A stretch of DNA of 64,000 nt, from positions 42,633 to 106,632 of the forward strand of contig JBLMYT010000093.1 in assembly GCA_050258455.1 (NCBI GenBank), in the 5' to 3' direction. Below are positions 26,307 through 41,376 of this stretch, one piece after another. Position numbers and translations under genes: made by a program. The notes beneath the pieces are model-generated. The model was given only the letters and a program-made list of their open reading frames with translations. It was not told where the DNA came from and made no database searches. Position 1 is the stretch's first letter. Each line of letters begins with the position of its first letter. The DNA comes from Candidatus Omnitrophota bacterium (GTDB lineage Bacteria > Acidobacteriota > Aminicenantia > UBA2199).

Positions 26307-27761
26307 CTATACCGATTCATTCATTTTGAGGTAGAGTCGTGAACCTTCCGGAATATCGGAAAAGTTTTGAATCGCATCGCCGGTTAATATCCCTTTCCCG
26401 GGGATCACGTAAACCGTATCGCGTCGGTTGTGGGCTTTACCGGCGATTCCCCACGGGGTTTGGCCTCGAACCGTTCCGATCATGAACGGTCCCTTATAGC
26501 CGATGATTAACGACGTTCCGTCCGGAATCGAATCCCAATCCGGGATTTGGTCTCCGGAGAGGATCCGGCCGTCGGATAGAAAGTAAATCGTCGACGGTTT
26601 GCAATACGCCGCGCCCGCAAAGCTCCAGGCTGTAAAGTCTTTGGTGATTAAGAACACAGGTCCCTTATCCTGCTCCGGATGCTGCGGCTCGTTGAGCAAG
26701 ACCCGGGTTCCGCGGGGAATATGGGCCCAGCCGATCGTCGGTTCGATCGCGTCGCCCCGGATTTCCCGTTGGTCGGGCAGCACATAGAGTGTTGTGGGGC
26801 TGTCGAAATCTTCGCCCGCGATGTTCCAGGCCGTGTTATTGGTCCCGATTATATTGGAGATTTTGCTTTCGTCCTGAACCAGTTTCGCATAGATGGTCGT
26901 GCCCTTTGGTTTACCCGTGCGTGTTTTGTTGGCAGCCAGGATCGGTTTTTCATCGGTTTCGTGGCCCTTGAATTTTTTATAAAACATGGCATAAATAAAC
27001 GGATCTCCGGCCAGGCGTCCGGTTTTTACATCCGGGTCATAGTGCCAGGAGTCGGTAAGGCCTGCTTTTTCTCGGTCGAAATTCAGGGCGCAGCGTTTGC
27101 GGCCTCGGTGACAGCGTTTAAACCAGATGTTGGGTTTTCCATAGGAAACCTGGCTGTGGGTCAATACATTTTTATCCGCGATGTCGTAGATGCGTTGAAG
27201 GATTTTCAGCAGTCGGGCAATTGCGTCGTATTGTTGAGGGGTGATCGTGTCGTAATGGTATCCCACCAGTTCGATGCTAACCGAATAGGAGCTGATATCT
27301 TCCAGGCCGTTCCACATGCTCAGACCGGCGTGGTCGGCCCGGCAGCGGTGGTTCAGGATCCGGTAGATTTTCCCGTCTCTGGAGATGGCATAATTGGCAT
27401 GGCCGCCGAAAGTTCGGTATTTTCCCACGTTTTTTCCTTCGGAGAGGGTGCGCAGGGTGCTGACCATTCCGGCTTCGGATGTATGAATAATGATGAAATT
27501 GGTTTTTGATCGGATGATTTTCACAAACTTTTTATTTAAGTGATCCTGATAATTGATAAAGGAGTCATTGGATTCGCTGGTTGGTTCATCCTCGGTTGGG
27601 GTTTCGCGGGGAAAAATGGGGCTGGTGAAATTCCAGAGAGCAAAGGCAATACAAATAACAACCCAACTCACATTACCCAGATGTCCCGCGTAGCGCGGGA
27701 GATGCCGCACGTTCATTCGACTCCTTTGTATTGAGAAAATATCAGAATGTAAAAGATCCAA
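26307..27761 (-). CDS. N-acetylmuramoyl-L-alanine amidase (Amidase_2) with three C-terminal repeats
   Basis: N-terminal hydrophobic segment, IIIHTSE, HAGLSMW, SIELVG, VLTHSQV; true start probably the ATG near 27716. Confidence 0.82.
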   Translation of the reverse strand: MDLLHSDIFSIQRSRMNVRHLPRYAGHLGNVSWVVICIAFALWNFTSPIFPRETPTEDEPTSESNDSFINYQDHLNKKFVKIIRSKTNFIIIHTSEAGMVSTLRTLSEGKNVGKYRTFGGHANYAISRDGKIYRILNHRCRADHAGLSMWNGLEDISSYSVSIELVGYHYDTITPQQYDAIARLLKILQRIYDIADKNVLTHSQVSYGKPNIWFKRCHRGRKRCALNFDREKAGLTDSWHYDPDVKTGRLAGDPFIYAMFYKKFKGHETDEKPILAANKTRTGKPKGTTIYAKLVQDESKISNIIGTNNTAWNIAGEDFDSPTTLYVLPDQREIRGDAIEPTIGWAHIPRGTRVLLNEPQHPEQDKGPVFLITKDFTAWSFAGAAYCKPSTIYFLSDGRILSGDQIPDWDSIPDGTSLIIGYKGPFMIGTVRGQTPWGIAGKAHNRRDTVYVIPGKGILTGDAIQNFSDIPEGSRLYLKMNESV

Positions 27762-27910
27762 AAAGATTATTATTTATACTAGCTTTGCAAAAAAGTCAAG
27801 TAAATTGATTTGATAACCGGGAGTTCTCTGAAGTTGGGCTCGCTCTCTCCGAAGTTGGTGATTCCCTGACGTTGATTGCGCCGGCTCTCCCGGTGGTTGC
27901 CTGTTTCCGT

Positions 27911-28426
27911 GTGACACGTTTGCGGTTTCCGGTCACATGATTGTTGGTTTCATGTCGCTGGTTTGCGATTTCCGGTCACATGATTGTTGGTTTCATGTAA
28001 CTGGTTTGCGATTTTGGGTCACATGATTGGTGGTTTCATGTCGCTGGTTTGCGATTTGCGGTCACATGATTGATGGTTTCATGTCACTGGTTTGCGATTT
28101 TGGGTCACATGATTGGTGATTTCATGTCACTGGTTTGCGGTTTTGGGTCACATGATTGGTGATTTCATGTCACTGGTTTGCGGTTTGCGGTCACATGATT
28201 GGTGATTTCATGTCACAGGTTTACGGTTTGCGGTCACATGATTGGTGATTTCATGTCACAGGTTTACGGTTTGCGGTCACATGATTGGTGATTTCATGTC
28301 ACAGGTTTGCGGTTTTCGGTCACATGATTGGTGATTTCAGGTCACTGGTTTACGGTTTCCGGTCACATGATTGGTGGTTTCATGTCACAGGTTTGCGGTT
28401 TTCGGTCACATGATTGGTGATTTCAT
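27911..28426. repeat. Tandem array of about 12 x 43-bp units, non-coding
   Basis: GGTCACATGATT recurs exactly every 43 bp from 27931 to 28404; consensus GGTCACATGATTGGTGATTTCATGTCACTGGTTTGCGGTTTGC; no unique spacers. Confidence 0.95.
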
Positions 28427-28427
28427 T

Positions 28428-28526
28428 GGGAGTGTCAATTATTTTGTGTAAATGGTTAAAAAAAGGGTACCAAAAATTTTTTGGTTTGGGTATTAAATGG
28501 CAGAGACGTTGCGTGCAACGTCTCTG
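28428..28526 (+). mobile_element. IS256-like end remnant plus REP-like palindrome
   Basis: GGGAGTGTCAATTATTTTGTGTAAAT at 28428, then CAGAGACGTTGCGTGCAACGTCTCTG at 28501-28526; same layout as 1909 and 5030. Confidence 0.55.
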
Positions 28527-28550
28527 ATATAAGATTAGAACCAAAAAATT

Positions 28551-28654
28551 ATGATCAATGCTTACCGGGATAAATAAGCCTTTGTAATTATTGTTTAACA
28601 AATGGGGTTAGTTTTTTTATTGCCAATCGTTGTAGAAGAATTGACCCCGCATTT
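28551..28654 (+). repeat. Direct repeat copy 1 (paralog 3' end plus GGGGT..ACCCC hairpin)
   Basis: Aligns with 30304-30407: AATAAGCC.TTGTAATTATTG...AATGGGGT.AGTTTT...GAAT.TGACCCCGC. Confidence 0.75.
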
Positions 28655-28745
28655 CTCAATTCCTCAGTTTCGAATGATTGGAATTTTTTATAAAGGCTAC
28701 AATAAAGGATGATCGATCCTAAGTGGATTGAATTGAACGAAAAAT

Positions 28746-28773
28746 TTGACTTTTTTTTAATAGTTCTTATAAT
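28746..28773 (+). promoter_or_regulatory. Sigma70 promoter
   Basis: TTGACT-16bp-TATAAT upstream of 28936; RBS AAGGAGGG at 28925. Confidence 0.55.
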
Positions 28774-28935
28774 TTATTTTGTAAAATAAGGGGGACTCTT
28801 GATATGACCGGATAGGGGATGGACATTGCTTTGGAATAAATTTCAGTAAAGGTATGATTATGATTACCAAGGTATTTATAGTAAGGAGGAGAAGATATCG
28901 CTTGTAAATAAAAATCATTAAATAAAGGAGGGAAA

Positions 28936-30330
28936 ATGAACAACTACAAAAACAACAGGAAAAGAACGTTTCTTTTCAAGACAAACCTTAATAAGTCAAA
29001 GATTATGGGAAGGGTGATGCTATTAGGCATTCTGGCATTACTTTTATTTTTCAATGTATCCGGCCTTAACGCGCAACTTTGTGTAAATCAAAGCGTCTAT
29101 AACTCATGTTCGTGGACCTGGTCTTACGCAGGTCCTTGCAGTTCCCAATATAACTGCCTTTCTTATGCACTCGGCATCACCAGTTCGTGGATTTGGCCCT
29201 GGGGAGGATGTCCTACCAGCAGTCAAGTAGATACTTATCTTGCCACACAAGGCTATTATACTACTGGCGATTTCCCTAAAATTATTTCTTATGGCTCTTC
29301 GTCTTCATGCATCGTACATTTCGGTAAAGTAACGAGCTCGACCACTATAACAGCCAAATGGGGTTCGTTAAACCTTTTGAATCATGGTTCCTGGAACCCG
29401 TATTATTCAGGGTCATGCTATGGAAGTATGCAATCGGTGTATTATCAAAGGGTAGTACCAATGTCTGTTTCAATTTCCGGTCCTAGCAAAGGGTATAATA
29501 CCGGAACCTATACCTGGTGCGCCAATACTTCAAACGGTACACCACCCTATACCTACAGTTGGGAATACAAATATGCTAGTTATTCTTATCAACCCTGGCC
29601 ATTTACAACCCAATGTATAACGGTTTCCTTACCTCTGGATTTTGATCTCTGGATTAAGGCAACGGTCACGGGAGCAGACGGAAAGAAAGTTTCGGCGGAA
29701 AAGTTTATTATAAACCTGGATGCCCTCGGATTAAAATTGGGGGCTACCCTGAATTCCAATCAAATATCTACCCATCTTTCAGACCTGTTAAATGAGGCTG
29801 AGGCGAAGGGGATCATTAGTTCGAATCCCTATGACTATATTAACAATGAATCCTTCCGAAAAATTGTTAAATTGGGACCTGAAGCATTGATGACCATAAG
29901 AAGTATGATCCGAGAGAGCGATGAAAATGGCCTTAAAGAATATATCCTTGCTATAGCCGCAGAAGAAATTGCCAAAACCGATTTGAAAGGAGACCATTTT
30001 GGATGGGAGAACGGAAAAAAATGGACTCAGCAATGGGATTTTTACATGAGATCGTTGTCCGGTAAAGTGGCAGAGATATTTAAATCCGGTATCCCAGTCA
30101 CAGAAAAAAATAAGGCCCTGGTTAAATTGGGTATCCCCGCCATTCCTTTAATCATCGACGAAATCGCTCGTGGAAATTCCCAATACAAAGTCGCAATTCA
30201 AGATTTACTCAAAGGATATCCTTCGCTAACAGGATTAAGGGCAGGAGAAGATGTGAAATCCTGGGAAACTAAAAATTCCAATAATATTAGGGTCTTAAGA
30301 GATTTAATTAATATTTACAGGAAAAAATAA
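28936..30330 (+). CDS. Secreted protein: papain-like (DUF7689-type) domain, PKD/Ig-like domain and helical C-terminal domain
   Basis: Signal peptide (...SGLNA/QL), YNCLSYALG..WIWP, VHFGK..AKWG, then GTPPYTYSW Ig-like segment and repeated VKLG..A motifs. Confidence 0.6.
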   Translation: MNNYKNNRKRTFLFKTNLNKSKIMGRVMLLGILALLLFFNVSGLNAQLCVNQSVYNSCSWTWSYAGPCSSQYNCLSYALGITSSWIWPWGGCPTSSQVDTYLATQGYYTTGDFPKIISYGSSSSCIVHFGKVTSSTTITAKWGSLNLLNHGSWNPYYSGSCYGSMQSVYYQRVVPMSVSISGPSKGYNTGTYTWCANTSNGTPPYTYSWEYKYASYSYQPWPFTTQCITVSLPLDFDLWIKATVTGADGKKVSAEKFIINLDALGLKLGATLNSNQISTHLSDLLNEAEAKGIISSNPYDYINNESFRKIVKLGPEALMTIRSMIRESDENGLKEYILAIAAEEIAKTDLKGDHFGWENGKKWTQQWDFYMRSLSGKVAEIFKSGIPVTEKNKALVKLGIPAIPLIIDEIARGNSQYKVAIQDLLKGYPSLTGLRAGEDVKSWETKNSNNIRVLRDLINIYRKK

Positions 30331-30407
30331 GCCCTTGTAATTATTGGCTCATACAATGGGGTCAGTTTTCTTAACCACTCTTGGTGAGAGAATCTGACCC
30401 CGCTTTT
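30304..30407 (+). repeat. Direct repeat copy 2, likely terminator hairpin
   Basis: GGGGTCAG...CTGACCCCGCTTTT after the stop codon; homologous to 28551-28654. Confidence 0.75.
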
Positions 30408-30455
30408 GGCTCGTTGAATTCTGCGGCAAAATGAGGCATAGATCCACACGAATCG

Positions 30456-31616
30456 TCATGCACCTCTACCTTTTCCCCAATCGATTTTATAGACTTCAAG
30501 CATCTGCGAACCGCTCTCTTGATTGTATAGATAATATAACCGGTTGTTGACCACCCGTATGACGGCTTTTGGATAAGGAGGGGCTTTTAAAACAAATCGT
30601 GAAATAAAAATTCCGTCAGAGTTAAAAACATCCACCATATAACCGGAATTGTTTTTATCTCTTTCATAAGTCATCACATACAACCGACCCTCCGGGTCGG
30701 TTGAAAATTGATGAAACGCAGGCAATGCATCCGGAAATACCAATTTATTCTTAACCAATTGATATTTTTTACCTAAGGTTTCAATAAAAGCTTTTTTGTA
30801 ATCTTCGGAAGGGGAAACCGGTTCGAATTTCTTTTGAATTCTCTTGAGCAATTTACCTGAAAAGTTATAGACGCTAAGATCATAGCCTCTTTCCTGGTTA
30901 CCGGTGATGATCGTATTGCCGGCAATATCCACGCCCATCGTATTGTATATCCCCAGGAGTTTTGAACCCAGAGGGCTAAGCATTTCCATTTCGTCCAGCG
31001 TTTTAATTTCATTAAAACCGGCATCATATAATTGCAATAAAATTTTTATATTACCGGTTTTCGAAGTCGGAAATTCAAATTTTTTAAAAACAAAGTTCCC
31101 ATTCTCCTTATCCAGGATAATCCCTTCGGACGCGGAAGGGGTGAATCGAATATCTTTAATAAATTTTCCATTGGTTTGAAAGAAAGAAAATTTCCGATTT
31201 AGAGGATCCGTGATGACAATTTGGTTGGCGCGATTCAGACGGATTCTCAGTGGAGAACGAAATTCTCCCGGGCCCTGTCCTTCTCTTCCGAACTCGGATA
31301 GGAATTCCCCTTTTTTATTTAAAACGACAATCTTTTGATATTTCACATCGAGTAAATAAATATTACCGGTTTTATCCGCATCCAAATCTCCGATAATTGC
31401 AATCGTTTCCTCAAACTTGTCCAGATCGATCGCATTTTCTGCCTTTAAAGTCACTTTTAATGGCAGCCCATTCACCTTGTAAGGTTGGAGGTGATTGACA
31501 ATCACTTCGACCCCGTTTTCGATTCGTTTTTCGATTTTTTCAACCTGGGCGCCATCAAGAAAAAAGGACATAAACGCAAGTATCAACGTAAGACCGATGA
31601 GTATTCTCATCTTCAC
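30456..31616 (-). CDS. Secreted 6-bladed beta-propeller (NHL-repeat) protein
   Basis: Signal peptide, GNIYLLD, FGREGQGPGEF, D.EGRLYV, DVFNSDG. Confidence 0.85.
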   Translation of the reverse strand: MKMRILIGLTLILAFMSFFLDGAQVEKIEKRIENGVEVIVNHLQPYKVNGLPLKVTLKAENAIDLDKFEETIAIIGDLDADKTGNIYLLDVKYQKIVVLNKKGEFLSEFGREGQGPGEFRSPLRIRLNRANQIVITDPLNRKFSFFQTNGKFIKDIRFTPSASEGIILDKENGNFVFKKFEFPTSKTGNIKILLQLYDAGFNEIKTLDEMEMLSPLGSKLLGIYNTMGVDIAGNTIITGNQERGYDLSVYNFSGKLLKRIQKKFEPVSPSEDYKKAFIETLGKKYQLVKNKLVFPDALPAFHQFSTDPEGRLYVMTYERDKNNSGYMVDVFNSDGIFISRFVLKAPPYPKAVIRVVNNRLYYLYNQESGSQMLEVYKIDWGKGRGA

Positions 31617-32347
31617 CTCCCAATCTCTTTTATATTAAAAAGTTTTATTCCCGCAGTAAAGAGCAGGAACACATAAATGCAATATTTCAGGAAGAAAATA
31701 AATGAAAGCGGCTTTGCCGCAAATAAGTTTTTCACAATAGCCACACTCTTTATCGGGTTGATAAAGTCAACCAGTTGTTTCAAAAAATAAGGTAAGCTCA
31801 AGCCCGGTAAATTGGGTAAGAAAACAATGATAAATATAAGGAAAACCATGACCGAAACATTCATTTCTCTGGGAGTCCACACCGAAATGAATGTCGCAGC
31901 ACCAATGATGGATATTTGGTCTAAGAGTAAGACGCCTAAAATGGGAAGCAAAGAGAATAAGGGAAAGGATTGCTTGTGATAAAGTGTTGTTATCAATCCG
32001 ATTCCGAGTAAAAAAAGAAGAAGCAATAGGGTACAGAAAAATAGTGTGGCCACGTATTTACTCAAATAAATGGAGCTCTTTTTTACGGGTTTTGCCAGAA
32101 TAATATTCATAAAACCGCTGCTGATTTCTTTTCCCAAAATACCGGCACTCAATATCAGGCAAATAAAGATGTTGAAAATAAAGACCTTGTTAAAAAGGAA
32201 TCTTTCAAATGATTCAAGGTGGGCATAATATCGGGTGAAAACAAAAAGAGCAGTAAAGAGGATAAATGCACCCAGGTAAAACGCCACTCTCGACAGGTCT
32301 CTAAAGAACTGAATAATATGAAATTTGATGATGGTTTTTGAAATCAT
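31613..32347 (-). CDS. ABC-2 type transporter permease
   Basis: About six TM helices, EISSGFMNIILAKPVKKSSIYLSKY motif; 4-nt overlaps with both neighbours. Confidence 0.88.
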   Translation of the reverse strand: MISKTIIKFHIIQFFRDLSRVAFYLGAFILFTALFVFTRYYAHLESFERFLFNKVFIFNIFICLILSAGILGKEISSGFMNIILAKPVKKSSIYLSKYVATLFFCTLLLLLFLLGIGLITTLYHKQSFPLFSLLPILGVLLLDQISIIGAATFISVWTPREMNVSVMVFLIFIIVFLPNLPGLSLPYFLKQLVDFINPIKSVAIVKNLFAAKPLSFIFFLKYCIYVFLLFTAGIKLFNIKEIGR

Positions 32348-33075
32348 TGTTGGTCTCCGGCATGCACATGTTTTAAGAACAAGTCTTCGAGGCTTTCTTG
32401 TTTGTTTTGCATATCAAAGGTATGTTGAATTTTACCCTGTTTTAAAAATCCAACTGTATCACAAACTTTTTCCAATTCGGAAAGATAATGAGAACACATG
32501 ATGATCGTTCTTCCCTGTTTCTTTAAGTCGTATAAGATGTTTCTGAAATCGATAATTCCAAGAGGATCAAGGCCTGTTGTGGGTTCGTCTAAAACTACCA
32601 ATCTCGGATTGCCAAGAAGTGCCTGGGCTAAAAACAACCGCTGGATCATACCTTTTGAATAAGTGGTGATTTTTCTTTTTATATTGTCTTCGAGCCCAAC
32701 CTTTATCGTGATCTGATTGATTTCATTTTTCAGATCTTGAGCATTCAGACCGGAGAGAGCCCCCATATACTCAAGAAATTCTTTTCCGTTGAGGTAATTT
32801 AAGTATATGGGATCTTCAGGCAGGTATCCCATCCATTTCTTGGTTTCGATATGGCGGTTATCTTTCCCAAATATGTTGATGATACCGGAATCGGGTTTAA
32901 GAAGCCCGATGATCATTTTGATTGTTGTTGTTTTTCCTGCGCCATTCGGACCGACCAGGCCGAATATCTTCCCTTCTTCGACAGAAAACGATAGTTCATC
33001 TACTGCTTTTTTCGTATCTTTTCCGTCTCTATATGCTTTTGTAAGATTATTGAGTTCAATTTGTTCTATTTTCAT
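32344..33075 (-). CDS. ABC transporter ATP-binding protein
   Basis: GPNGAGKTT, YSKGM signature, LDEPTTGLDP, SH; start taken at ATG 33075 (ORF track begins 33090). Confidence 0.93.
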   Translation of the reverse strand: MKIEQIELNNLTKAYRDGKDTKKAVDELSFSVEEGKIFGLVGPNGAGKTTTIKMIIGLLKPDSGIINIFGKDNRHIETKKWMGYLPEDPIYLNYLNGKEFLEYMGALSGLNAQDLKNEINQITIKVGLEDNIKRKITTYSKGMIQRLFLAQALLGNPRLVVLDEPTTGLDPLGIIDFRNILYDLKKQGRTIIMCSHYLSELEKVCDTVGFLKQGKIQHTFDMQNKQESLEDLFLKHVHAGDQQ

Positions 33076-33080
33076 GAAAA

Positions 33081-33109
33081 AGTGTAACATATTTTGTTTT
33101 TTCTTTCAA
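33081..33109 (-). promoter_or_regulatory. Sigma70 promoter for the ABC/propeller operon (leaderless)
   Basis: TTGAAA-17bp-TACACT with extended TG, ending 5 nt before ATG 33075. Confidence 0.55.
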
Positions 33110-33199
33110 GAAATCAATAGGAAAATTATGGAAAATAATTATTACGGTTTGATTATTATGAATAATTCTTTTAATGATCAAAAAATTAAGATACTGACG

Positions 33200-33244
33200 T
33201 TGACATTTATAGAAAAATGTGATATCCTCTTTATGCTTAAGGAG
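33200..33244 (+). promoter_or_regulatory. Sigma70 promoter and RBS of the RiPP precursor
   Basis: TTGACA (33200)-17bp-TATCCT with extended TG; AAGGAG at 33239-33244. Confidence 0.7.
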
Positions 33245-33249
33245 TATTT

Positions 33250-33438
33250 ATGAAAAAAATAACAAAAGAATCAATAATATCGATCGCTGGTCAGGATGCC
33301 ATTAAGGCAGGTGTCAGAACTTGCGCTGATGCTTGTTCTGATTATTGTGTTGCTTCTTGCCCGGAATCAGGTTCGCTTAATGGTGATACCGCTCTTCAAT
33401 GGGGATTCGGCGGCGTATGGGGACCCGATAAAGTTTAA
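33250..33438 (+). CDS. Putative RiPP precursor peptide (CX3CX3CX3C core)
   Basis: 62 aa with an MKKITK leader, CADACSDYCVASC and a WGFGGVWGP tail; own promoter and RBS; 63 nt upstream of the rSAM genes. Confidence 0.85.
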   Translation: MKKITKESIISIAGQDAIKAGVRTCADACSDYCVASCPESGSLNGDTALQWGFGGVWGPDKV

Positions 33439-33501
33439 TTATTTCATCTAAAAAACTATATCCGGTTTTAGAGAATCGTTATATCTACATATTTACCAAA
33501 A

Positions 33502-35001
33502 ATGTATAAATGGGAAGTCACATTCAAGGATGAGAATAATAACGATTATATATATGATTATTGGAATAATGCGATTTATCATTCAGGTGAGTGTTTTCAG
33601 AATGTCCGAAAATTAAAAGGCCAATATGATATAGATACCATTGTGTCTCTATTACCTGATTTTTCGAGGGAAGAAGTGCTTCTAAATTATAAACGCATTC
33701 AAAAAATTGAAGAAACCAATAAACTTATAACTAAATTCAAAACAGAAGCACTGGAGAAACCGAAAAAATACTTGCCCAGATTGACTCACAAAACCTTCGA
33801 AAAAATGATTTCGCTGACTAAACAATTAACTTTAGAAGTATGTCAATCTTGTAATCAGCGATGCGAGTATTGTATTTATTCGGGAAAATATGAATTTCAG
33901 AGAACTCACCCTGAAGGTAATAAGGTAATGTCATTTGATATTGCACGTAAATCAATCGATTATTTTATCTCCCTTATCAATTCAAAGAAAAGGATATTAA
34001 AATATGGCAATGCAGCGATCGGTTTCTATGGCGGGGAACCATTGCTTGCCTTCGAATTAATCAAAGAGTGCGTTGATTATATAAAAAAGAAAGAAACAAA
34101 AGAAAAAATAATTTACACGATCACAACAAATGGAACACGGTTAAATGAAGAAATGATCAATTTTTTCATTCAAAATGATTTCTGGATACTTTTGAGCCTC
34201 GATGGTCCTCAAGAAGAACACGATAAATTCAGGGTATTTAAAAATAAAAGAGGCACCTTCGAAAAAACCATGAAAGGGATTTCAATGCTAAAAAAATACC
34301 AAGATTATTATGAGAAAAAAGTATCCATTTCCTCGACTTATTGTATGGCCCATGATTTACTTTCCATAGAAGAATTCTTTGAGGAGAATTTTAAAGATAA
34401 AAATATACTTGCCTCAGCGATAAGATCAACCCGAACTGATTTTTATCGGAAAGTAAAGCCCGATCCGAATTTCCTTGAAAAGTACAAAAGACTATTTCGA
34501 AAATATTGCGATGCTGTTGAAAATAACAAACCATTATCCAGTTATATTAACGGTTTTTTTTCAAAAAATCTAGCCAAAGTTCACGATAGACCGATGATTC
34601 GTTTGGATAACCGTTTAAACGGAATACTTAAAATATTCAATATATGCGCAAATTGCTTTCCCGGTGAAAAAATATTTGTGGATACGGACGGGGTATTCTT
34701 TATATGTGAAAGGGTTAATCAGTTTTTTTCTATTGGGGATTACCAAAATGGTATTAATTTTAAAAAGGTAAAAAAAATTGTAGAATCATATTCACAATTT
34801 GCTTTAAAACACTGTCTTTTTTGCGAGGCAAGACGATTTTGCAATTTGTGTATCTCCCATAATGGTGTGAAAGGAAATTTCGAATATAATGATACCTGTG
34901 AGAATGCCCGAATGATTCTTCGGGACACTTTGGGCGCGTATATCACTTTATATCAAAGAAATAAGAATGCGTTACTTAATAATTTAAGAAAAGTATCATG
35001 A
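33502..35001 (+). CDS. Radical SAM/SPASM peptide maturase (Cys-rich peptide maturase-like)
   Basis: N-terminal RRE-like region, QLTLEV..CNQRCEYC, FYGGEPLL, TTNG, SLDGP..HD..R, SPASM CFPG...CERV...CLFC..RFCNLC. Confidence 0.9.
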   Translation: MYKWEVTFKDENNNDYIYDYWNNAIYHSGECFQNVRKLKGQYDIDTIVSLLPDFSREEVLLNYKRIQKIEETNKLITKFKTEALEKPKKYLPRLTHKTFEKMISLTKQLTLEVCQSCNQRCEYCIYSGKYEFQRTHPEGNKVMSFDIARKSIDYFISLINSKKRILKYGNAAIGFYGGEPLLAFELIKECVDYIKKKETKEKIIYTITTNGTRLNEEMINFFIQNDFWILLSLDGPQEEHDKFRVFKNKRGTFEKTMKGISMLKKYQDYYEKKVSISSTYCMAHDLLSIEEFFEENFKDKNILASAIRSTRTDFYRKVKPDPNFLEKYKRLFRKYCDAVENNKPLSSYINGFFSKNLAKVHDRPMIRLDNRLNGILKIFNICANCFPGEKIFVDTDGVFFICERVNQFFSIGDYQNGINFKKVKKIVESYSQFALKHCLFCEARRFCNLCISHNGVKGNFEYNDTCENARMILRDTLGAYITLYQRNKNALLNNLRKVS

Positions 35002-36296
35002 TGCGAGATGAATTGAGTCTTAATTATTTTTTTTTGAACGATGATTGTATATTAATTAAGGGCGCATTAAATGGGGCTATTTATGATTTGAAAAGTGGGC
35101 ATGTTTATTCGTTAACTCCTATAGAAAAATCAATATTGAATTACTGCGAAGAATCCAAATGCCTTAAAACCATTGCAAAATTGTTGAACGTGCCCAAGGG
35201 AGATATACTTAAAATTCTTCAGGAAATAAAAAGGAATGGATTGGGACATTTTTATAAAAATAGCGTTTTTATCGATAAGAATACCGATTACAATTTAAAA
35301 TCTCTATCGCATAAACCGGTAAAATTGGATACGCTTGTCATTGAGCTTCATCGACGATGCGATTTGAATTGTCTTTTCTGCGATAATGAAGAAGCAAACA
35401 GCCCACGGTATGCTTACTGCGGATGCAGAAAAGAAAGAAATCCAAGATGCTTAACTATTGAAAAAATAAAAAGCGTCATCCGAGAAGGAAGGGAATTTAA
35501 TTTGAATTCAATCTACTTTATTGGGGGAGACCCTTTTTTATTTAAAGAAAAGTTTTTCAAATTACTCGAATATTGTCGAAAGCGTGTAAATGGGATATGG
35601 GTTCATACGCATGCGGGAAATCTTAACGATGAAGGCATCAATCTGTTGAATCAACTCGAAATAAATCTTGATATCCCCGTGTATTCGCATGACGAGAAAC
35701 TTCATGATAATATAACCGGTACGCCATATCATTATAAAAAATTGATTTCAGTAATAGAGACGTTAGTGGGAAAAGGAATAAATTTTAATGTTATTCATTA
35801 TATTGGTGATTTCAATTCAACGCATCTTTATAAGACCCAGGAATTTTTCAAAAACTTGGGGTGCTGTTCTGTGACTCAAAAATTTATTTATCCGAAAAAT
35901 AAGATGGCAGCAGATAATCCATTTCTTCATATTTATAATAACAGTAAAAAAAATTTTCCAAGGATAAATAAAGATATTTTTTTCCGTAATAAAACTGGAA
36001 ATATGTGTTTGTCCCGGAAATTGGCAATTTCACGAACAGGAGAGATTGCCCCTTGTCATATTATAGCGGATCGAAGTCTTGGTAATGTTAAAGAAGTAAG
36101 TATAAATGAAGTTCTCAGAATGAAAGAAATCGACTCTTACTGGGAATTATCCAAGGATAAGTTAGAAGTTTGTAATGAATGTGAATATCGCTATCTGTGT
36201 ATTGATTGCCCCATTCTGGAACACCGGGCAGATGGAAAGTTTTATCAAAATTTTTATTGTCGCTATAATCCACAAAGAGCAATGTTTGAGGAATGA
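34998..36296 (+). CDS. Second radical SAM/SPASM peptide maturase
   Basis: YFFLNDDCILIKG...IYDL RRE-like N-terminus, CDLNCLFC, GGDP, SPASM SKDKLEVCNECEYRYLCIDC...CRYNP; ATGA overlap with the upstream gene. Confidence 0.87.
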   Translation: MMRDELSLNYFFLNDDCILIKGALNGAIYDLKSGHVYSLTPIEKSILNYCEESKCLKTIAKLLNVPKGDILKILQEIKRNGLGHFYKNSVFIDKNTDYNLKSLSHKPVKLDTLVIELHRRCDLNCLFCDNEEANSPRYAYCGCRKERNPRCLTIEKIKSVIREGREFNLNSIYFIGGDPFLFKEKFFKLLEYCRKRVNGIWVHTHAGNLNDEGINLLNQLEINLDIPVYSHDEKLHDNITGTPYHYKKLISVIETLVGKGINFNVIHYIGDFNSTHLYKTQEFFKNLGCCSVTQKFIYPKNKMAADNPFLHIYNNSKKNFPRINKDIFFRNKTGNMCLSRKLAISRTGEIAPCHIIADRSLGNVKEVSINEVLRMKEIDSYWELSKDKLEVCNECEYRYLCIDCPILEHRADGKFYQNFYCRYNPQRAMFEE

Positions 36297-36301
36297 TAAC
36301 C

Positions 36302-36319
36302 CTAATCGATAACGGTCAT
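36302..36319 (-). pseudogene. Truncated VapC (PIN) remnant, MTVID*
   Basis: ATG overlaps the antitoxin stop (ATGA); MxVID matches the PIN first-strand motif, then TAG. Confidence 0.45.
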
Positions 36320-36522
36320 CTATCTTTTTCTTCTCTTTCCGGATCCGTGTCCATTCCGGATAAAACTCCGAATAAATCGTCTATTTTTTTTTCAGGAATC
36401 AGTTCTATTCTATCCCCGATAGTCATTAATATGAATCTTTCACCGGGTTTCATATTTTGTTTTTCCCGTATTTCTTTAGGGATGGATATTTGATAACTCG
36501 TCGAAAGATTTACTATAGGTAT
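36316..36522 (-). CDS. AbrB/MazE/SpoVT-type antitoxin (VapB-like), apparent ATA start
   Basis: LSTSYQISIPKEIRE...KPGE...IELIP...G.DTD..REEKDR; GAGGAGGT RBS precedes ATA at 36522. Confidence 0.7.
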   Translation of the reverse strand: MPIVNLSTSYQISIPKEIREKQNMKPGERFILMTIGDRIELIPEKKIDDLFGVLSGMDTDPEREEKDR

Positions 36523-36650
36523 TTTACCTCCTCTGCGTGCCCGGTGCACTTATATTAATGATAGTATAGGTTAATTTCGTATTCAAGCTGTTTGCATGAA
36601 TACCAGCAATTCGCATTCTGTCCCAACACGAAAGCCCATATCGAACACAC

Positions 36651-36758
36651 GGGCAGACACGCAGGTCTGCCCCTACAGGAAAATAAGATCAATTATTGGT
36701 TATATCGCGCGGGACCGCTCGGAATTTTCCCTTAGGGGCGCACCCGTGTGTGCGCCCC
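36651..36758. repeat. Two oppositely oriented GTAG-type REP-like palindromes
   Basis: GGGCAGACACGCAGGTCTGCCCCTAC (36651-36676) and TAGGGGCGCACCCGTGTGTGCGCCCC (36733-36758). Confidence 0.7.
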
Positions 36759-36970
36759 CATTCTATTCGGATGGTCCGAGAATTGACTCATTTTTTCAAT
36801 GATTTAAATCCAGATATTTTATTTCGATATTCAGTAACTGACTGAGTTCTTTTACTTTTTTGGAAGAGATGGGGACAGAATGCAAACTGCTGTTTTTCAA
36901 AATACCCGGTTTTAAAAAATCCCAAAATGGTATATCATATTAAGATAAACTTTTTTCATTGAGGTAAATA

Positions 36971-39307
36971 ATGAAACGTCTCCTGCTTATCCTGCTCGTG
37001 GGTATGTTTTTAATGACCACGAATGTGTTCACCATAAGCACCGCAAAAGATTATACCAATTTTTATAAAGGCATCACCTATATCATCCTCGACGATAAAC
37101 CAAATGCGGAAAAATACCTTGACCAATTCTTCAAGGATTTTCCCGATCCGCAACTGAGCGGCGCTTTCTCAAACCTGATCAACACCAACAGCTTCGAGGT
37201 CACCAAAGAATTTAACCGTTACCTGGATATGAATCACCGATCCCCACTCGCCCTGATGGGCATCGCTCTGTCCGCTTCAAAATTGGAATCCCCGGGCGCA
37301 ATCGAAAACCTGGAACGCGCCCAACGCCTGGACGAATCCTTCTCCATCCTGTACATCGGCCTGGGCATGGAATACGTGAAACAAAAAGATTACCCCAAAG
37401 CCGAATCCTACTTCACCCGCGCCATGCGCTATTCCAAAATTCCGGAATATAAACTCTTTTACGCCAAACTCTTCCTTCGAAAAAATGAACCGGCCAAAGC
37501 CCTTGACCTTCTCAAACCCGAAGCCGAAAAACAACCCTACCATTTTTATTTTAATTTCTACACTGCCAAAGCCCTTTACCGACTCCATCAACTGGACCCC
37601 ATGGGCAAATTTATCACGGCCGCGGTCAAGGCATGGCCAACTAACCCCGACGCCCAACTCCTGATGGCCAAATACCTGACCGGTAAAGGCCAATTTCGCC
37701 CCGCCCGAGATATCCTGAAAAAACTCCAATTCAAAGATTATAACGACGATTATTACCGCATCTATGCCCGGGTCTTATTCGAACTCAAAGACCCCAATGC
37801 CAAACGCTACATGGATAAAGTTTACTCGTATAACCCATGGGATGGCGTAATTAACCGCTTATTGGGACTGGTCGAGGAAGGAAAACCAACCGAAAAAGGA
37901 AACGTCCAGAACCGAATCACCCGCGCCTCAATCTGCGGCACCCCCATCGCTCAACTGCAACGCTTGTTCCCCTCCACCTACCGATTTCCCGTATACCCAT
38001 CCTTACCCTTTTTTGAAATGAACGCCATCAAATGGTTAACCCCCCATCTCCTGGCGGTCGGGGGAATCCGAACCAGCGGAGACACCGGAAAACTCGTTGT
38101 GATCAATGCCGATAATTTAAATATCATCCATTCCATGGATTACAAAGGAAAACTAAAAGACATCTTTCCCTCTCCGGATGGGAGCAAACTTATTTTTTAT
38201 ACGCATTTTGATAAAGACGATAAATTTTATATTTATTCGATCGAAATGTCGGGAAAAAACGTCCGGTCCAACCTCCTTACCCCCAATGGCCAATCCATGC
38301 CGGCCCTCTCGGTCGGATTTGACGGAACGGGCAATCTGGCCTATATCACGGATGACCGGTTAACCAAATTAACCAGCGAATCCCCGTTTTCATTGGTATC
38401 CGAAGGAGTGAGAAAACGGGTATATGCGCCGTCGTTTCCTTTTAATCTCTACATGTACAATTTCAAAACGCAATTTACCAGTTTTGTCAGAGATACCGGA
38501 AACTTCCCCAATATTCCCATCGATTGCATCAAAAAATATTATTGGGTATCCCGGGCCGCCCGCAGCCAAACCGATATTCAAAACCTGATTAAAAAGGGGG
38601 AAAACCTGGATATCACGGCTTCGGAAATGGTCCGGATATTTTTCTCCAATGACCGGCACTCATTTATTATCTATCTGTCGGACCTCAAAAACGCATTCCA
38701 GGGAATCGTCTACGATCATCATGCCAACCGAACATTTAAAGTCAATCAAAATATGTTTCTCTCGCAATTCGCGGAACTCCACCTGCTGGATTTTGATCCG
38801 GAACGACACGAACTCCTGGTGCTGACCAAAGATGCATCCCGCCAGTTGATTCGATACAATTATAAAAATTATTCCTTTACCCCGATCGCCGACAAGGTCC
38901 GTCAATGCGTGATCGATCGAACCGAAAACCGCCTCCTGATTCTTCGGGAACGGCGCCGGATGCAGGAGGGGATGGAAACCACGCTGTTAACGGTGTCGCT
39001 TTCCCCCTATATCCGAAAGACGATCGAGGCGCGGCGCGATTTGAAACAAATTCTTTTTGTCAACGAACAGGGCGAGGTTTACTTTTCCACGTTTCGCGGC
39101 GAAACCGTTAAAATGGATGAACAGGGAACCTTCGTTTCTTGCGGACCGTCGTTTGACGGTTGTCGGCATGCGGTATCACCCTCCAAAACCAAAACCGCTG
39201 CTTTTATCAACGGGCGTCTGGTCATCGTGGATGGACCGGTCATGATCCCGGCAAAGGAACTACCCAAAACCAACTCTCGCAATCGGAAAGGATCTCATGG
39301 GCATTGA
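36971..39307 (+). CDS. Secreted TPR-repeat protein with a C-terminal beta-propeller-like region
   Basis: Signal peptide, helical TPR patterns, SPDGSKL (PD40-like). Confidence 0.7.
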   Translation: MKRLLLILLVGMFLMTTNVFTISTAKDYTNFYKGITYIILDDKPNAEKYLDQFFKDFPDPQLSGAFSNLINTNSFEVTKEFNRYLDMNHRSPLALMGIALSASKLESPGAIENLERAQRLDESFSILYIGLGMEYVKQKDYPKAESYFTRAMRYSKIPEYKLFYAKLFLRKNEPAKALDLLKPEAEKQPYHFYFNFYTAKALYRLHQLDPMGKFITAAVKAWPTNPDAQLLMAKYLTGKGQFRPARDILKKLQFKDYNDDYYRIYARVLFELKDPNAKRYMDKVYSYNPWDGVINRLLGLVEEGKPTEKGNVQNRITRASICGTPIAQLQRLFPSTYRFPVYPSLPFFEMNAIKWLTPHLLAVGGIRTSGDTGKLVVINADNLNIIHSMDYKGKLKDIFPSPDGSKLIFYTHFDKDDKFYIYSIEMSGKNVRSNLLTPNGQSMPALSVGFDGTGNLAYITDDRLTKLTSESPFSLVSEGVRKRVYAPSFPFNLYMYNFKTQFTSFVRDTGNFPNIPIDCIKKYYWVSRAARSQTDIQNLIKKGENLDITASEMVRIFFSNDRHSFIIYLSDLKNAFQGIVYDHHANRTFKVNQNMFLSQFAELHLLDFDPERHELLVLTKDASRQLIRYNYKNYSFTPIADKVRQCVIDRTENRLLILRERRRMQEGMETTLLTVSLSPYIRKTIEARRDLKQILFVNEQGEVYFSTFRGETVKMDEQGTFVSCGPSFDGCRHAVSPSKTKTAAFINGRLVIVDGPVMIPAKELPKTNSRNRKGSHGH

Positions 39308-39860
39308 AAAACCGTTTCAAAAAGTCAAATTATTCTCAGGTTTTATTTATCGGGATGAACCCGTATATCATCATATCAAAACCAAACTGGAATCGATTTA
39401 CTCGATTGCCGAACTGGAATCGGAACCCTTTCATTTCGAGTTTACCGATTACTACCACCAGGAAATGGGCGCCCCGCTCTATCGTCGGTTTGTGGCGTTT
39501 CAATCGCTGATCGATCCGGAAGAACTGCCGGATATCAAATTGTTAACCAATGAAATCGAACGCGAAACCGCTCAGAACGGGAAACGAACCATTAACCTGG
39601 ACCCGGGGTTTTTATCCGAAGCCAACGTCATTATTGCCACGACCAAGAACTACTATCACCGGGTGCCGCTCACCCGGGGCATCTATGCGCACATGGAATA
39701 CGTGATTATCGGTAAATCCCTCAAAACGCTGGATTGGACTTACCCCGATTTTAAATCCCCGGGGTACATGGACTTTTTTTACCGGCTCAATACCGTATAT
39801 AAAAAAAATTTGAAAGAAATGAGACAACATGCTGATGAAATTAGAACGCCAGGAGCGTAA
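39297..39860 (+). CDS. DUF4416 family protein
   Basis: FTDYY..EMG, IKLLTNEIE, RTINLDPG, ATTKNYYHR, WTYPD. Confidence 0.85.
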   Translation: MGIEKPFQKVKLFSGFIYRDEPVYHHIKTKLESIYSIAELESEPFHFEFTDYYHQEMGAPLYRRFVAFQSLIDPEELPDIKLLTNEIERETAQNGKRTINLDPGFLSEANVIIATTKNYYHRVPLTRGIYAHMEYVIIGKSLKTLDWTYPDFKSPGYMDFFYRLNTVYKKNLKEMRQHADEIRTPGA

Positions 39861-41376
39861 AAAAGCCGGCCTGAAACAAAAATTAAACAGCAATTACATC
39901 TGGACCTTCACCACTTACTTTACCGAAGGGTTTCCCTATGCCATGATCCGGTCGGTTTCCGCCGTTTTTTTCCGGGACATGAAAGCGCCGCTCTCATTTG
40001 TCGGATTGACGTCCTTATTCGGCATTCCCTGGATATTGAAATTTCTCTGGGGACCCTGGGTCGATGAGTTTGGCACCAAGCGTCGGTGGCTGGTGGGCAT
40101 GCAGGCGCCGCTCCTCGTGGTCTTTCTGGCCGCCGCTGTATTTGCCCCGTTTGGGAATAATGTTTATCTGATTTACGGGCTCTTTTTTATCGGGTCTTTT
40201 ATTGCAGCCTCCAATGACACGGCCATCGATGGCTATTACCTGGAAGCGTTAAGCAAAGAGGATCAATCGAAATTTGTCGGGTACCGGAACATGGCGTACC
40301 GGTTATCCTGGATGTGCGGAACCGGGGTCATTGTCACCCTGGGCGCCACGGCCGGATGGCCCCTGGCGTTTCTAATCGCAGCCGTGATCTTTGGTCTTTT
40401 CGTCCTGTACCATTTGTTCTTTTTGCCGGAGATCCAGGTTCCCGAAAAAAGGATCGGCATCCTGTTGGCCCGGGTATTTCGATTCAAGGTTCTGGCCATA
40501 ATTCTCGCGATCCTGGCTGCGGCAATCGGGATTCAATACTATTTTCAATCGCCCGGTTATGCCCGGTTAACCGAACGGATTTCCTTTTTAAAGAAGATGG
40601 AACTGGCCCATTGGGCCGCGCTTCTTTTACTCCTGGCACTGATTCTGGTGGGAATCTTTATCAAACGGTTCAAGCAACTGCTGGTCAAAAACCCGGATTC
40701 CAACTATGGAAAAGCCTTCATCACCTTCATGGATAAGGAGAAAATCGGGGTCATTCTCTCATTTATCATCTTGCTTCGGCTCGGCGAATGGGTGCTGTCA
40801 AACATGGTGTCCCCGTTTATCGTGGATCTGGGGATCAAAGTCCATTACGGATGGATCAGTGCGGGCGTCGGACTTCCCTTATCGATCACCGGAACCATGG
40901 TCGGAGGATGGATGATTGCCCGTTACTCCTTAAAACGCATGATCTGGCCGTTTATCCTCATTCAAAATTTCATCCATGTTTTTTATACCTTGTTGGCCGT
41001 GCACCTTCAGCCGTTTGTCGCGCTTAATACCGGCGCGGCCCATCCGGTTCCGATCGGCTTCGCCAATTTGATATGGGTTGCCGGCGTTAATGGGTTTGAC
41101 CAGTTTGCCGGCGGGTTGGGAAGTTCGGTATTGATCACCTACCTCATGCGCATTTGTCACAAAGACCATAAAGCCAGCCATTACGCGATCGGCACCGGTT
41201 TAATGGCCATACCCGCTCCGTTTGCCGGCGTGTTTAGCGGAATCATTGCCGGATGGCTGGGGTATGCCTGGTTGTTCGGGATCAGCTTTGTCCTGGCCAT
41301 TCCCGGGATGATGCTCATCCCGTTTCTGCCTTATCTTTCGGATGAGAAACTCGACATGAAAGGGAGTACAACATGA
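39829..41376 (+). CDS. AmpG-like MFS muropeptide permease
   Basis: YFTEGFPY, PWILKFLWGPWVD, ASNDTAIDGYYL, ASHYAIGTG; multiple TM helices. Confidence 0.82.
   Translation: MLMKLERQERKKAGLKQKLNSNYIWTFTTYFTEGFPYAMIRSVSAVFFRDMKAPLSFVGLTSLFGIPWILKFLWGPWVDEFGTKRRWLVGMQAPLLVVFLAAAVFAPFGNNVYLIYGLFFIGSFIAASNDTAIDGYYLEALSKEDQSKFVGYRNMAYRLSWMCGTGVIVTLGATAGWPLAFLIAAVIFGLFVLYHLFFLPEIQVPEKRIGILLARVFRFKVLAIILAILAAAIGIQYYFQSPGYARLTERISFLKKMELAHWAALLLLLALILVGIFIKRFKQLLVKNPDSNYGKAFITFMDKEKIGVILSFIILLRLGEWVLSNMVSPFIVDLGIKVHYGWISAGVGLPLSITGTMVGGWMIARYSLKRMIWPFILIQNFIHVFYTLLAVHLQPFVALNTGAAHPVPIGFANLIWVAGVNGFDQFAGGLGSSVLITYLMRICHKDHKASHYAIGTGLMAIPAPFAGVFSGIIAGWLGYAWLFGISFVLAIPGMMLIPFLPYLSDEKLDMKGSTT

Follow-up and report, generated by a model that had tools for sequence, protein, structure and literature searches.

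The question raised by this locus is what, if anything, is made from a small cysteine-rich open reading frame (ORF) that lies just upstream of two radical S-adenosylmethionine (rSAM) enzyme genes in an uncultured bacterium. The window analyzed here is the whole stretch of 64,000 nucleotides (nt) from contig JBLMYT010000093.1 of Candidatus Omnitrophota bacterium, and the ORF occupies positions 33250-33438 of its plus strand. According to the original prediction, which was made from the DNA letters alone, the ORF encodes a bipartite precursor whose cysteine (Cys) ladder and Trp/Gly-rich tail resemble the hairpin of sactipeptides. We consider that the ORF is very probably a real precursor of a peptide made by the ribosome and modified post-translationally (RiPP). 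The overall explanation that we favor, and to which we would give an even chance, is that of an rSAM thioether-peptide precursor which is made into a nested hairpin by a two-subunit maturase composed of the two neighboring enzymes, here called rSAM1 and rSAM2.

Direct translation of 33250-33438 yields an intact frame of 62 codons followed by a stop, MKKITKESIISIAGQDAIKAGVRTCADACSDYCVASCPESGSLNGDTALQWGFGGVWGPDKV*, which is identical to the peptide described originally. The residues C25, C29, C33 and C37 stand at exact i+4 spacing, and are followed by a P-E-S-G turn (residues 38-41) and a Trp/Gly-rich tail (residues 43-62), as had been noted. The gene and its signals comprise the following elements:

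33200-33228, plus strand: promoter-like site TTGACA-17-TATCCT with TG, 10 of 12 matches, ending 21 nt before the ATG
33239-33244, plus strand: ribosome-binding site AAGGAG, 5 nt upstream of the ATG, read directly in the sequence
33250-33438, plus strand: precursor peptide gene, 62 amino acids (aa) and stop, with three homologues and a ribosome-binding site
33250-33312, plus strand: leader, residues 1-21, with an M-x-K-[IV]-T start and an end of the double-glycine (GG) type, I-K-A-G
33322-33360, plus strand: Cys ladder C25-x3-C29-x3-C33-x3-C37, with invariant D27, S30 and D31
33376-33414, plus strand: candidate acceptor arm, L43 to G55, with invariant L43/T47/A48/W51/G55 and aromatic 53

The promoter-like site, a consensus match only, is the joint best among 27 sites scanned in 32900-37000 (4.1 kb). 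When four Cys were placed randomly in 62 positions in 1,000,000 trials, an exact i+4 ladder was obtained with P = 8.5e-5, and any equal spacing of up to 7 with P = 6.3e-4. In the whole 6.27-Mb assembly, C-x3-C-x3-C-x3-C was found in 9 of 32,298 M-to-stop small ORFs of 30-120 aa, and most of these nine resemble peptide precursors too. As a side observation, six more small ORFs with at least four Cys at exact i+4 are present in this genome (contig, position and strand: C15:1674(-), C95:33237(-), C95:30186(-), C41:8059(-), C49:14208(+) and C49:14848(+)); three of them start their leader with MFFEMPELLNLDGS or a near variant, and two carry a signal resembling those of twin-arginine translocation, followed by a long CXXX repeat.

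Three homologues of the precursor (61-66 aa, 46-53% identity; E values of 7.5e-10, 1.2e-7 and 3.4e-7) were retrieved when 1.84 billion representatives were scanned in full with HMMER, and with them the family has four members in the libraries searched. The repetitive 1703-aa protein P0005 was removed from the alignment as a low-complexity match. The alignment of the four precursors contains 20 invariant columns, including all four Cys: M1, K3, T5, Q15, I18 and G21 are invariant in the leader, and R23, C25, D27, C29, S30, D31, C33, C37, G41, L43, T47, A48, W51 and G55 in the core. The conservation of Cys spacing and aromatic residues, on which the original prediction hinged, was found for the most part. 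The first three Cys are at i+4 in all four sequences, W51 is invariant and position 53 is always aromatic (F/Y/W/F), whereas the last gap is CxxxC in three members and CxC in one, and position 57 varies (W/W/S/A). The triplets WGF, FGG and WGP, originally put forward as alternative aromatic-X-X substrates of the second enzyme, are therefore retained as far as W51-x-aromatic53 and G55 are concerned, but WGP is not. Likewise, the remark that the leader ends without a double glycine is literally true for this peptide, although the aligned site reads A-G in three members and G-G in the fourth, P0003 (leader ends K-A-G, K-A-G, H-G-G and N-A-G). We infer from these ends a GG-type boundary with leader/core cleavage after A20-G21.

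No Pfam or NCBIfam model recognizes the precursor peptides, and P0003 gives a sub-threshold match to a double-glycine bacteriocin model (E 0.023). The ESM Atlas feature scores of the precursor are all 0.81-0.86, under the lead level of 0.9, and its ESM Atlas clusters, which include a CLI_3235-family bacteriocin and an Apre_1838-family putative sactipeptide, were treated as a lead only. The word-index search returned the query itself as the single match, and the alignment search gave 34 pattern matches in genome contigs and 590 in metagenome contigs, none of them related. Across the phylum (401 genomes), the precursor profile gave no convincing match (three beyond this genome, with E values of 0.001-0.006, two of them with internal stops). 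In 72 family genomes the profile gave two weak matches, one of which (locus L025, E 0.002) encodes a peptide with four Cys at i+4 and lies just upstream of an rSAM1 paralogue.

The precursor gene heads an operon in which rSAM1 follows after 63 nt and rSAM2 overlaps rSAM1 by 4 nt:

33502-35001, plus strand: rSAM1, 499 aa, radical SAM/SPASM protein, candidate thioether synthase (Pfam Radical_SAM 1.1e-16)
34998-36296, plus strand: rSAM2, 432 aa, radical SAM/SPASM protein, candidate leader-binding partner and/or second modifier (Pfam Radical_SAM 4.8e-16, SPASM 6.3e-7)

The rSAM1 protein has an N-terminus like a RiPP recognition element (RRE), a CX3CX2C motif (C117/C121/C124) and a 7-Cys SPASM domain, and the motif and the seven SPASM Cys are invariant in five orthologues. 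The best curated NCBIfam families for rSAM1 are all Cys-peptide maturases. CcpM (TIGR04068, Cys-rich peptide maturase) scores best with 257.6 bits (cut-off 500), and is followed by the sactisynthase RumMC (NF035951; 178.1 bits, cut-off 720), the lachnocin maturase (168 bits, cut-off 550), the Bacteroidales GG-system maturase TIGR04148 (162.9 bits, cut-off 300), the ranthisynthase PapB (NF047865; 149.4 bits, cut-off 340), the SCIFF maturase (TIGR03974; 113.1 bits, cut-off 425) and QhpD (109 bits). The CXXX-repeat peptide maturase (TIGR04115) reaches 93.5 bits (cut-off 350), though the substrate has a CXXX repeat. Among solved structures, that of the thioether synthase CteB is nearest (5wgg; 3e-23, or 2.2e-32 when the profile of the orthologues is used). 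With the profile, CteB is aligned from residue 17 onward, so that its N-terminal recognition domain (RRE) is included. At position 1 of the catalytic-site profile, the sole position mapped, rSAM1 has Ile/Val whereas CteB has Phe. Four orthologues of rSAM1 were identified by word-index search (46-56% identity, all other proteins being at or below about 38%). A search of the genome contigs gave 42 pattern matches, none of them related, and the alignment of the rSAM1 orthologues against metagenome contigs led to 80 loci, all with paralogues at 28-41% identity. We consider it probable that the precursor Cys are converted to thioethers by rSAM1.

In the favored explanation, the N-terminal M-K-K-I-T-K-E-S strand of the leader (residues 1-21) would be gripped by an RRE domain, and rSAM1 would abstract hydrogen from residues of the C-terminal arm and join each Cys sulfur there; the hairpin, of helix-turn-helix form, would then contain as many as four nested rings. 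A cut at G21 would leave a 41-residue core, V22-V62, with Cys at core positions 4, 8, 12 and 16. The invariant residues L43/T47/W51/G55 mirror C37/C33/C29/C25 at i+4 (in four sequences only), and by analogy with known hairpins the arm from L43 to G55 may provide the acceptors. Two registers can be proposed. In the first, C37 would be linked to L43, C33 to T47, C29 to W51 and C25 to G55; all four partners are invariant, and the innermost loop has five residues, as does that of thurincin H. The second, shifted by four, would pair C37 with T47, C33 with W51, C29 with G55 and C25 with residue 59. Since the deletions of the homologue P0004 fall between C33 and T47, the three outer pairs remain in register under either scheme.

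The second register is exactly that of thuricin Z from Bacillus thuringiensis. As described in PMC8172795, thuricin Z/huazacin contains the links Cys4-His38, Cys8-Tyr34, Cys12-Thr30 and Cys16-Asp26, and its cluster encodes two distant rSAM enzymes, ThzC and ThzD, together with ABC transporter genes. When positions are compared with ThzA as far as that account gives them, the Cys of the precursor studied here would occupy the same core positions 4/8/12/16 after a cut at G21, and T47/W51/G55 would fall at core positions 26/30/34, with the same innermost offset of +10 (C16-D26 there, C37-T47 here). The presence of two rSAM enzymes for one precursor type and of ABC transporter genes is a further likeness. 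Unlike thuricin Z, the present system belongs to an uncultured non-Bacillus host, has Pro or Lys as the outermost candidate acceptor and carries invariant Asp/Ser between the Cys, and its C-alpha link is putative. A leader-plus-core precursor with Cys donors here adjoins its maturase, an rSAM protein with CX3CX2C, SPASM and RRE. The original proposal of a sactipeptide-like hairpin is supported as regards the thioether-type rSAM/SPASM maturase beside the precursor, the conserved Cys and the mirrored L43/T47/W51/G55; that the links are of the S-C-alpha and not the S-C-beta/gamma (ranthi) kind is a supposition. By analogy, we place a nested S-C-alpha hairpin of the thuricin Z type at, or slightly short of, an even chance.

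Upstream small ORFs were examined at 99 loci that carry rSAM1 paralogues (28-44% identity), of which 19 belong to related genomes and 80 to metagenomes. An upstream small ORF on the same strand with at least three Cys was found at 63 of the 99 loci; among these 63, CxCxC is present in 30 and the strict C-x3-C-x3-C in seven. One of the seven, L053, also has four Cys at i+4, and L012 and L025 encode two more C-x3-C-x3-C peptides outside the count of seven. Many peptides of the rSAM1 clade show an M-I/L-K-x-h-T start and a GG or AG shortly before the first Cys, and both traits recur in the paralogous precursors. Judging from these peptides, the i+4 Cys ladder appears as a recurring minority substrate type of the clade, and the leader motif and GG-type boundary as common features.

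The second enzyme, rSAM2, has an RRE-like N-terminus, a CX3CX2C motif (C120/C124/C127 when numbered as in P0126, which has 431 aa) and a 7-Cys SPASM domain, and these motif and SPASM Cys, together with an extra Y-C-G-C-R motif, are invariant in six of six sequences. The Y-C-G-C-R motif (residues 138-143 of P0126) lies 13 residues past CX3CX2C and contains two extra conserved Cys. The NCBIfam matches of rSAM2 are weak: the best, TIGR04193 at 84.8 bits, covers the SPASM tail only, and the "pseudo-rSAM" model TIGR04150 scores 42.4 of 250. No sequence match to rSAM2 was found in the PDB, and the ESM Atlas returned generic rSAM/SPASM clusters only. The AlphaFold2 model is poor (mean pLDDT, the predicted local distance difference test score, of 53), with a beta-beta-beta-beta, alpha-alpha-alpha N-terminus followed by a well-modeled barrel, and is too weak for fold-based claims; its top Foldseek ranks are CteB, SkfB, anSME and SuiB, with TM-scores of 0.33-0.40. 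A word-index search of 5.8 billion clustered proteins gave five rSAM2 orthologues (42-50% identity, all others at or below 32%), so that the family has six members in the libraries searched. In three rSAM1/rSAM2 orthologue pairs the longest contig is equal in size and source (8086 ena, 14506 ena and 136992 lgn), which suggests that the orthologues of the two enzymes lie on the same contig.

The binding of the precursor was modeled by a three-chain fold of rSAM1, rSAM2 and the precursor, each with its own small alignment and with the precursor as the scored partner. The model reached an ipSAE of 0.66 (runs 0.70/0.66/0.64) versus 0.46 for the best control; when unrelated 62-aa peptides served as partners, both controls gave 0.00. 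During calibration of the tool, 116 of 157 solved complexes attained the mark, as did 2 of 215 mismatched pairs. At least 55% of contacts are common to the runs. Nearly all confident contacts join precursor residues 1-11 and 13-17 to rSAM2, at residues 26-27, 33-39, 42 and 72-79, on the third strand and the last helix of the N-terminal domain, plus barrel loops. As the control with 0.46 was the run in which rSAM1 had been replaced, the leader stayed on rSAM2. As regards the co-folding of the leader with each RRE, suggested as a check of the original prediction, the three-chain model places the leader on the N-terminal domain of rSAM2, and just two residues of rSAM1 are touched by the precursor. 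The model supports leader binding without showing it; it gives moderate support to a leader that is recognized, probably by rSAM2, and is silent on the core.

A role of rSAM2 as a partner of the maturase is also indicated by the paralogues. The rSAM1 family is expanded, with matches at E values of at most 1e-20 in 29 of 61 genomes (this one and its relatives) and up to 25 in one relative, and many rSAM1 paralogues are followed by a 260-310-aa protein matching the rSAM2 C-terminus. Four paralogous cassettes of this genome were inspected, two on contig C123, one on C71 and one on C74; the first three lines below give the C123 and C71 cassettes, and the last a gene of the C74 cassette:

C123:7000-17000: paralogous rSAM RiPP cassette L107, with Cys-rich precursors, a 457-aa maturase and a short partner
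C123:27000-34761: paralogous rSAM RiPP cassette L108, with Cys-rich precursors, a 457-aa maturase and a short partner
C71:49000-55500: paralogous rSAM RiPP cassette L110, with several Cys-rich precursors
L109:3888-6194 on contig C74, minus strand: 769-aa fusion of a CcpM-like part (78-454) and a SPASM partner (663-767)

Each of the four contains several Cys-rich precursors. A CcpM-like maturase of 448-457 aa is present in both C123 cassettes and in C71, and both C123 cassettes encode a partner of 302-307 aa that starts like an RRE, contains CX3CX2C and ends in a SPASM tail. Beta-propeller-like lipoprotein genes occur on C123 and C74; in the C123 cassettes they are repeated, with about 380 aa each. 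Open frames of about 700 aa with both parts of the fusion were found in four related genomes (G001, G005, G024 and G036), and with the 769-aa fusion they provide Rosetta-stone evidence that the CcpM-like protein and the SPASM partner act together. In the proposed mechanism, rSAM1 and rSAM2 would form a two-subunit maturase comparable to TrnC/TrnD, in which rSAM2 would supply at least leader binding; since all of its cluster-binding Cys are kept, rSAM2 may catalyze as well. That rSAM2 is an obligatory leader-binding partner seems to us an evenly balanced proposition.

The comparison with TrnC/TrnD rests on the maturases of thuricin CD. The donors in thuricin CD are given as Cys5/9/13 in PMC8172795, and the account in Chem Sci 2025 states that only the radical chemistry of TrnC is essential and that, in an AlphaFold 3 model, TrnD serves mainly to hold the leader and TrnC to hold the core. 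As far as these accounts go, both systems have two rSAM/SPASM enzymes whose N-termini carry RRE-type domains, and precursors with i+4 Cys, and in both the leader would be docked on one enzyme (rSAM2 in our model); the paralogues of the present system also occur as fusions. Unlike here, thuricin CD has two precursors with three links each, and our complex score covers the precursor interface only.

Several observations weigh against the favored explanation. On the enzyme side, rSAM1 does not reach the cut-off of any curated NCBIfam family. On the precursor side, the family has four members only, so that invariance is weak statistics; the last Cys pair is CxC instead of CxxxC in one homologue; the thuricin Z register needs residue 59 as the outermost acceptor, and this position is P/K/P/P; and the AlphaFold2 model of the precursor, with helices at 25-28, 31-36 and 45-54, is of low confidence (mean pLDDT 49) and too weak for fold-based claims. 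As regards the complex, the pLDDT of the partner is only 43-48, the control with precursor and rSAM2 still scores 0.46 and leaves a margin exactly on the mark of 0.20, and the job (three chains, shallow alignments) is unlike the calibration; moreover, RRE-leader complexes are among the solved structures, and the pass may reflect likeness to them. No match to Peptidase_C39 (PF03412) was found in the 93.9%-complete genome, whereas 7 of 14 control genomes were matched; the GG-type site is therefore left without a known processing agent, and the leader protease would be encoded elsewhere than near the cluster. The missing protease and the invariant Asp/Ser between the Cys are unexplained by the favored model, and D27 and D31 in particular would fit a Cys-Asp ranthipeptide of the PapB type.

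Among the alternatives, the one that survives best is that the chemistry is split: rSAM1 would make the thioethers, and rSAM2 would cross-link the W51-x-aromatic53-x-G55 tail (by C-C or C-N bonds of the cyclophane type) or epimerize, giving a hybrid RiPP. With CX3CX2C, seven SPASM Cys and Y-C-G-C-R kept in all six sequences, rSAM2 looks catalytically competent, and it is close to no NCBIfam thioether family, its best match being confined to the SPASM tail. The invariant W51, the aromatic residue at position 53 and the contact of precursor residues 54-55 with rSAM2 in the model point in the same direction. However, the cyclophane families XyeB, GrrM, FxsB and YhhB are absent among the best 25 of 40 NCBIfam matches of rSAM2, and the WGP triplet is not conserved. 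In the paralogous cassettes the partners are shortened to 302-308 aa and a Trp tail is missing from most of the precursors, which argues for a general helper role, and ThzC/ThzD and TrnC/TrnD, as far as described in the sources cited above, are cases of two rSAM enzymes that serve one chemistry. We regard this alternative as rather unlikely, and hold the same view of the more general claim that the W51/aromatic-53 tail receives a distinct modification from rSAM2, which would be compatible with a leader-binding role.

The second alternative, which we judge unlikely, slightly more so than the split chemistry, is a ranthipeptide, in which the Cys would be joined to side-chain carbons nearby, forming small non-nested rings in C-A-D-A-C-S-D-Y-C (at the C-beta of D27/D31), and the C-terminal Trp/Gly arm would be a functional tail with no acceptor function. 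PapB joins Cys to the C-beta of Asp in freyrasin. The residues D27, S30 and D31 are invariant in all four precursors, and rSAM1 does score against PapB, the SCIFF maturase and QhpD (149, 113 and 109 bits). In addition, CteB, the nearest solved structure, is called a ranthisynthase in PMC10288494, in so far as that source treats it, and PapB is described in PMC9413430 as linking Cys to Asp or Glu. On the other hand, there are two conserved acidic residues for four conserved Cys, positions 35 (A/I/G/-) and 39 (E/H/T/G) vary, and one acceptor per Cys, as in the PapB type, is therefore not available. The invariant i+4 ladder L43/T47/W51/G55 is left unexplained by the ranthipeptide, the sactisynthase RumMC outscores PapB for rSAM1 (178 versus 149 bits), and the cut-offs of the PapB and SCIFF families are both missed.

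A more elaborate version of the split chemistry, which we consider doubtful and less likely than either of the above, is a maturase with divided labor, in which rSAM2 would hold the leader via its own RRE and install a new non-thioether cross-link on W51-x-aromatic53-x-G55, with the stapling of the four Cys left to the CcpM-like subunit, the hybrid product being encoded on a low-GC mobile island. Finally, that the ORF is unmodified (a small Cys-rich metal-binding or disulfide protein, or non-coding) and lies beside rSAM genes by accident would agree with the lack of any Pfam or NCBIfam match, but is very improbable in view of the conserved homologues with leader-like and core-like parts, the ribosome-binding site, promoter-like site and operon position, the Cys-rich small ORFs upstream of 63 of 99 paralogous maturases, and the controlled complex model in which the leader appears docked on an RRE.

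Returning to the favored reading of a thioether hairpin with its two-subunit maturase, the surroundings of the operon contain the following features:

28000-37000, no strand: low-GC island, 31-42% GC versus 46-56% in the flanks
30456-31616, minus strand: secreted 6-bladed beta-propeller-like protein, DUF5128 (PF17170 4.1e-11)
31613-32347, minus strand: ABC-2 type permease, with weak ABC2_membrane matches (E 1.3e-5 to 8.4e-5) under the gathering scores
32344-33090, minus strand: ABC transporter ATPase (PF00005 5.2e-29), divergent from the precursor gene

The ATPase matches the lantibiotic-protection ABC (191 bits) and GldA (193.7 bits) models of NCBIfam, both under cut-off, and the permease gene is translationally coupled to the ATPase gene. 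This divergent ABC-2 transporter may export the product or protect the producer; it has no peptidase domain, and no peptidase is encoded in the cluster. The DUF5128 protein has 22% identity (E 1e-6) to the lipoprotein-like genes in the C123 cassettes, and by sequence the beta-propeller-like protein would be a recurring accessory of the paralogous cassettes. The low-GC stretch of about 28.0-37.0 kb looks like an acquired island; besides the RiPP cluster, it includes the transporter and beta-propeller genes and the gene for a secreted DUF7689 protein of 464 aa (28936-30330). One rSAM1 orthologue is labeled by its source as a Nitrososphaerota metagenome-assembled genome, and this label and the island together suggest that the cassette moves between lineages.

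Other observations concern the island and its flanks. A tandem array at 27918-28426 (43-bp unit, 11.8 copies, 92% matches) occupies a non-coding gap at the left edge of the island. At the other end, a 66-aa plus-strand ORF (36293-36493) was rejected as a cluster member, having no family match and overlapping a minus-strand ORF of the MazE/AbrB type; the latter (36316-36549, 77 aa, PF04014 1.6e-8) is antitoxin-like, and no toxin gene was seen beside it. No Rfam match was found in 27000-40000. Farther away, genes for a phosphopantetheinyl transferase and a type II thioesterase lie side by side at 14929-16371 on the minus strand, and a gene for an AMP-binding enzyme at 62786-64000 on the plus strand runs off the end of the window; they look like accessory genes of non-ribosomal peptide synthesis. 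A 1392-aa protein encoded at 21636-25814 on the minus strand combines BcrAD/BadFG activase ATPase domains, DUF2229 and part of the 2-hydroxyglutaryl-CoA dehydratase D-component.

The overall design of the system, with a Cys ladder, an rSAM/SPASM thioether synthase, a second rSAM and an ABC transporter, is already known. Besides the thuricins, it resembles the Bacteroidales system of TIGR04148 and TIGR04150, as far as this is presented in PMC4573289, in its GG-type leader, its pair of rSAM-type proteins and its lipoprotein gene; TIGR04150 and TIGR04193 are matched weakly by rSAM2 and the short partners. Unlike the TIGR04150 pseudo-rSAM, rSAM2 is a complete rSAM whose CX3CX2C is intact, both GG-Bacteroidales enzyme models stay under cut-off, and the precursor has no match to the peptide models of the CcpM or GG-Bacteroidales systems. 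The SCIFF ranthipeptide enzyme CteB, which acts on thermocellin (5wgg, 5why), is the nearest structure to rSAM1 by sequence and the top Foldseek match for the rSAM2 model, but the identity is low, the SCIFF score of rSAM1 is 113 of 425 bits and the TM-scores of the rSAM2 model are only 0.33-0.40. In searches of the open-access literature, no characterized product was found for the CcpM/TIGR04068 or TIGR04148/04150 families, only in-silico surveys and general reviews, and none was found for Omnitrophota sacti- or ranthipeptides or for PF14406/DUF5128 with radical SAM RiPPs.

In the account of PMC8172795, nested-hairpin thioether peptides have been characterized only from Bacillota, and the same 4/8/12/16 Cys geometry, given a cut at G21, now turns up in an uncultured non-Bacillus bacterium. 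The precursor shows no detectable relation in sequence to the peptides known so far. There is a modest chance that rSAM2 contributes new chemistry. The 769-aa fusion and the short partners suggest that a division of labor like that of TrnC/TrnD, with leader binding in one subunit and the chemistry in the other, is widespread among such enzyme pairs. With its three genes, the locus offers a compact test case both for this generality and for what CcpM-type enzymes make.

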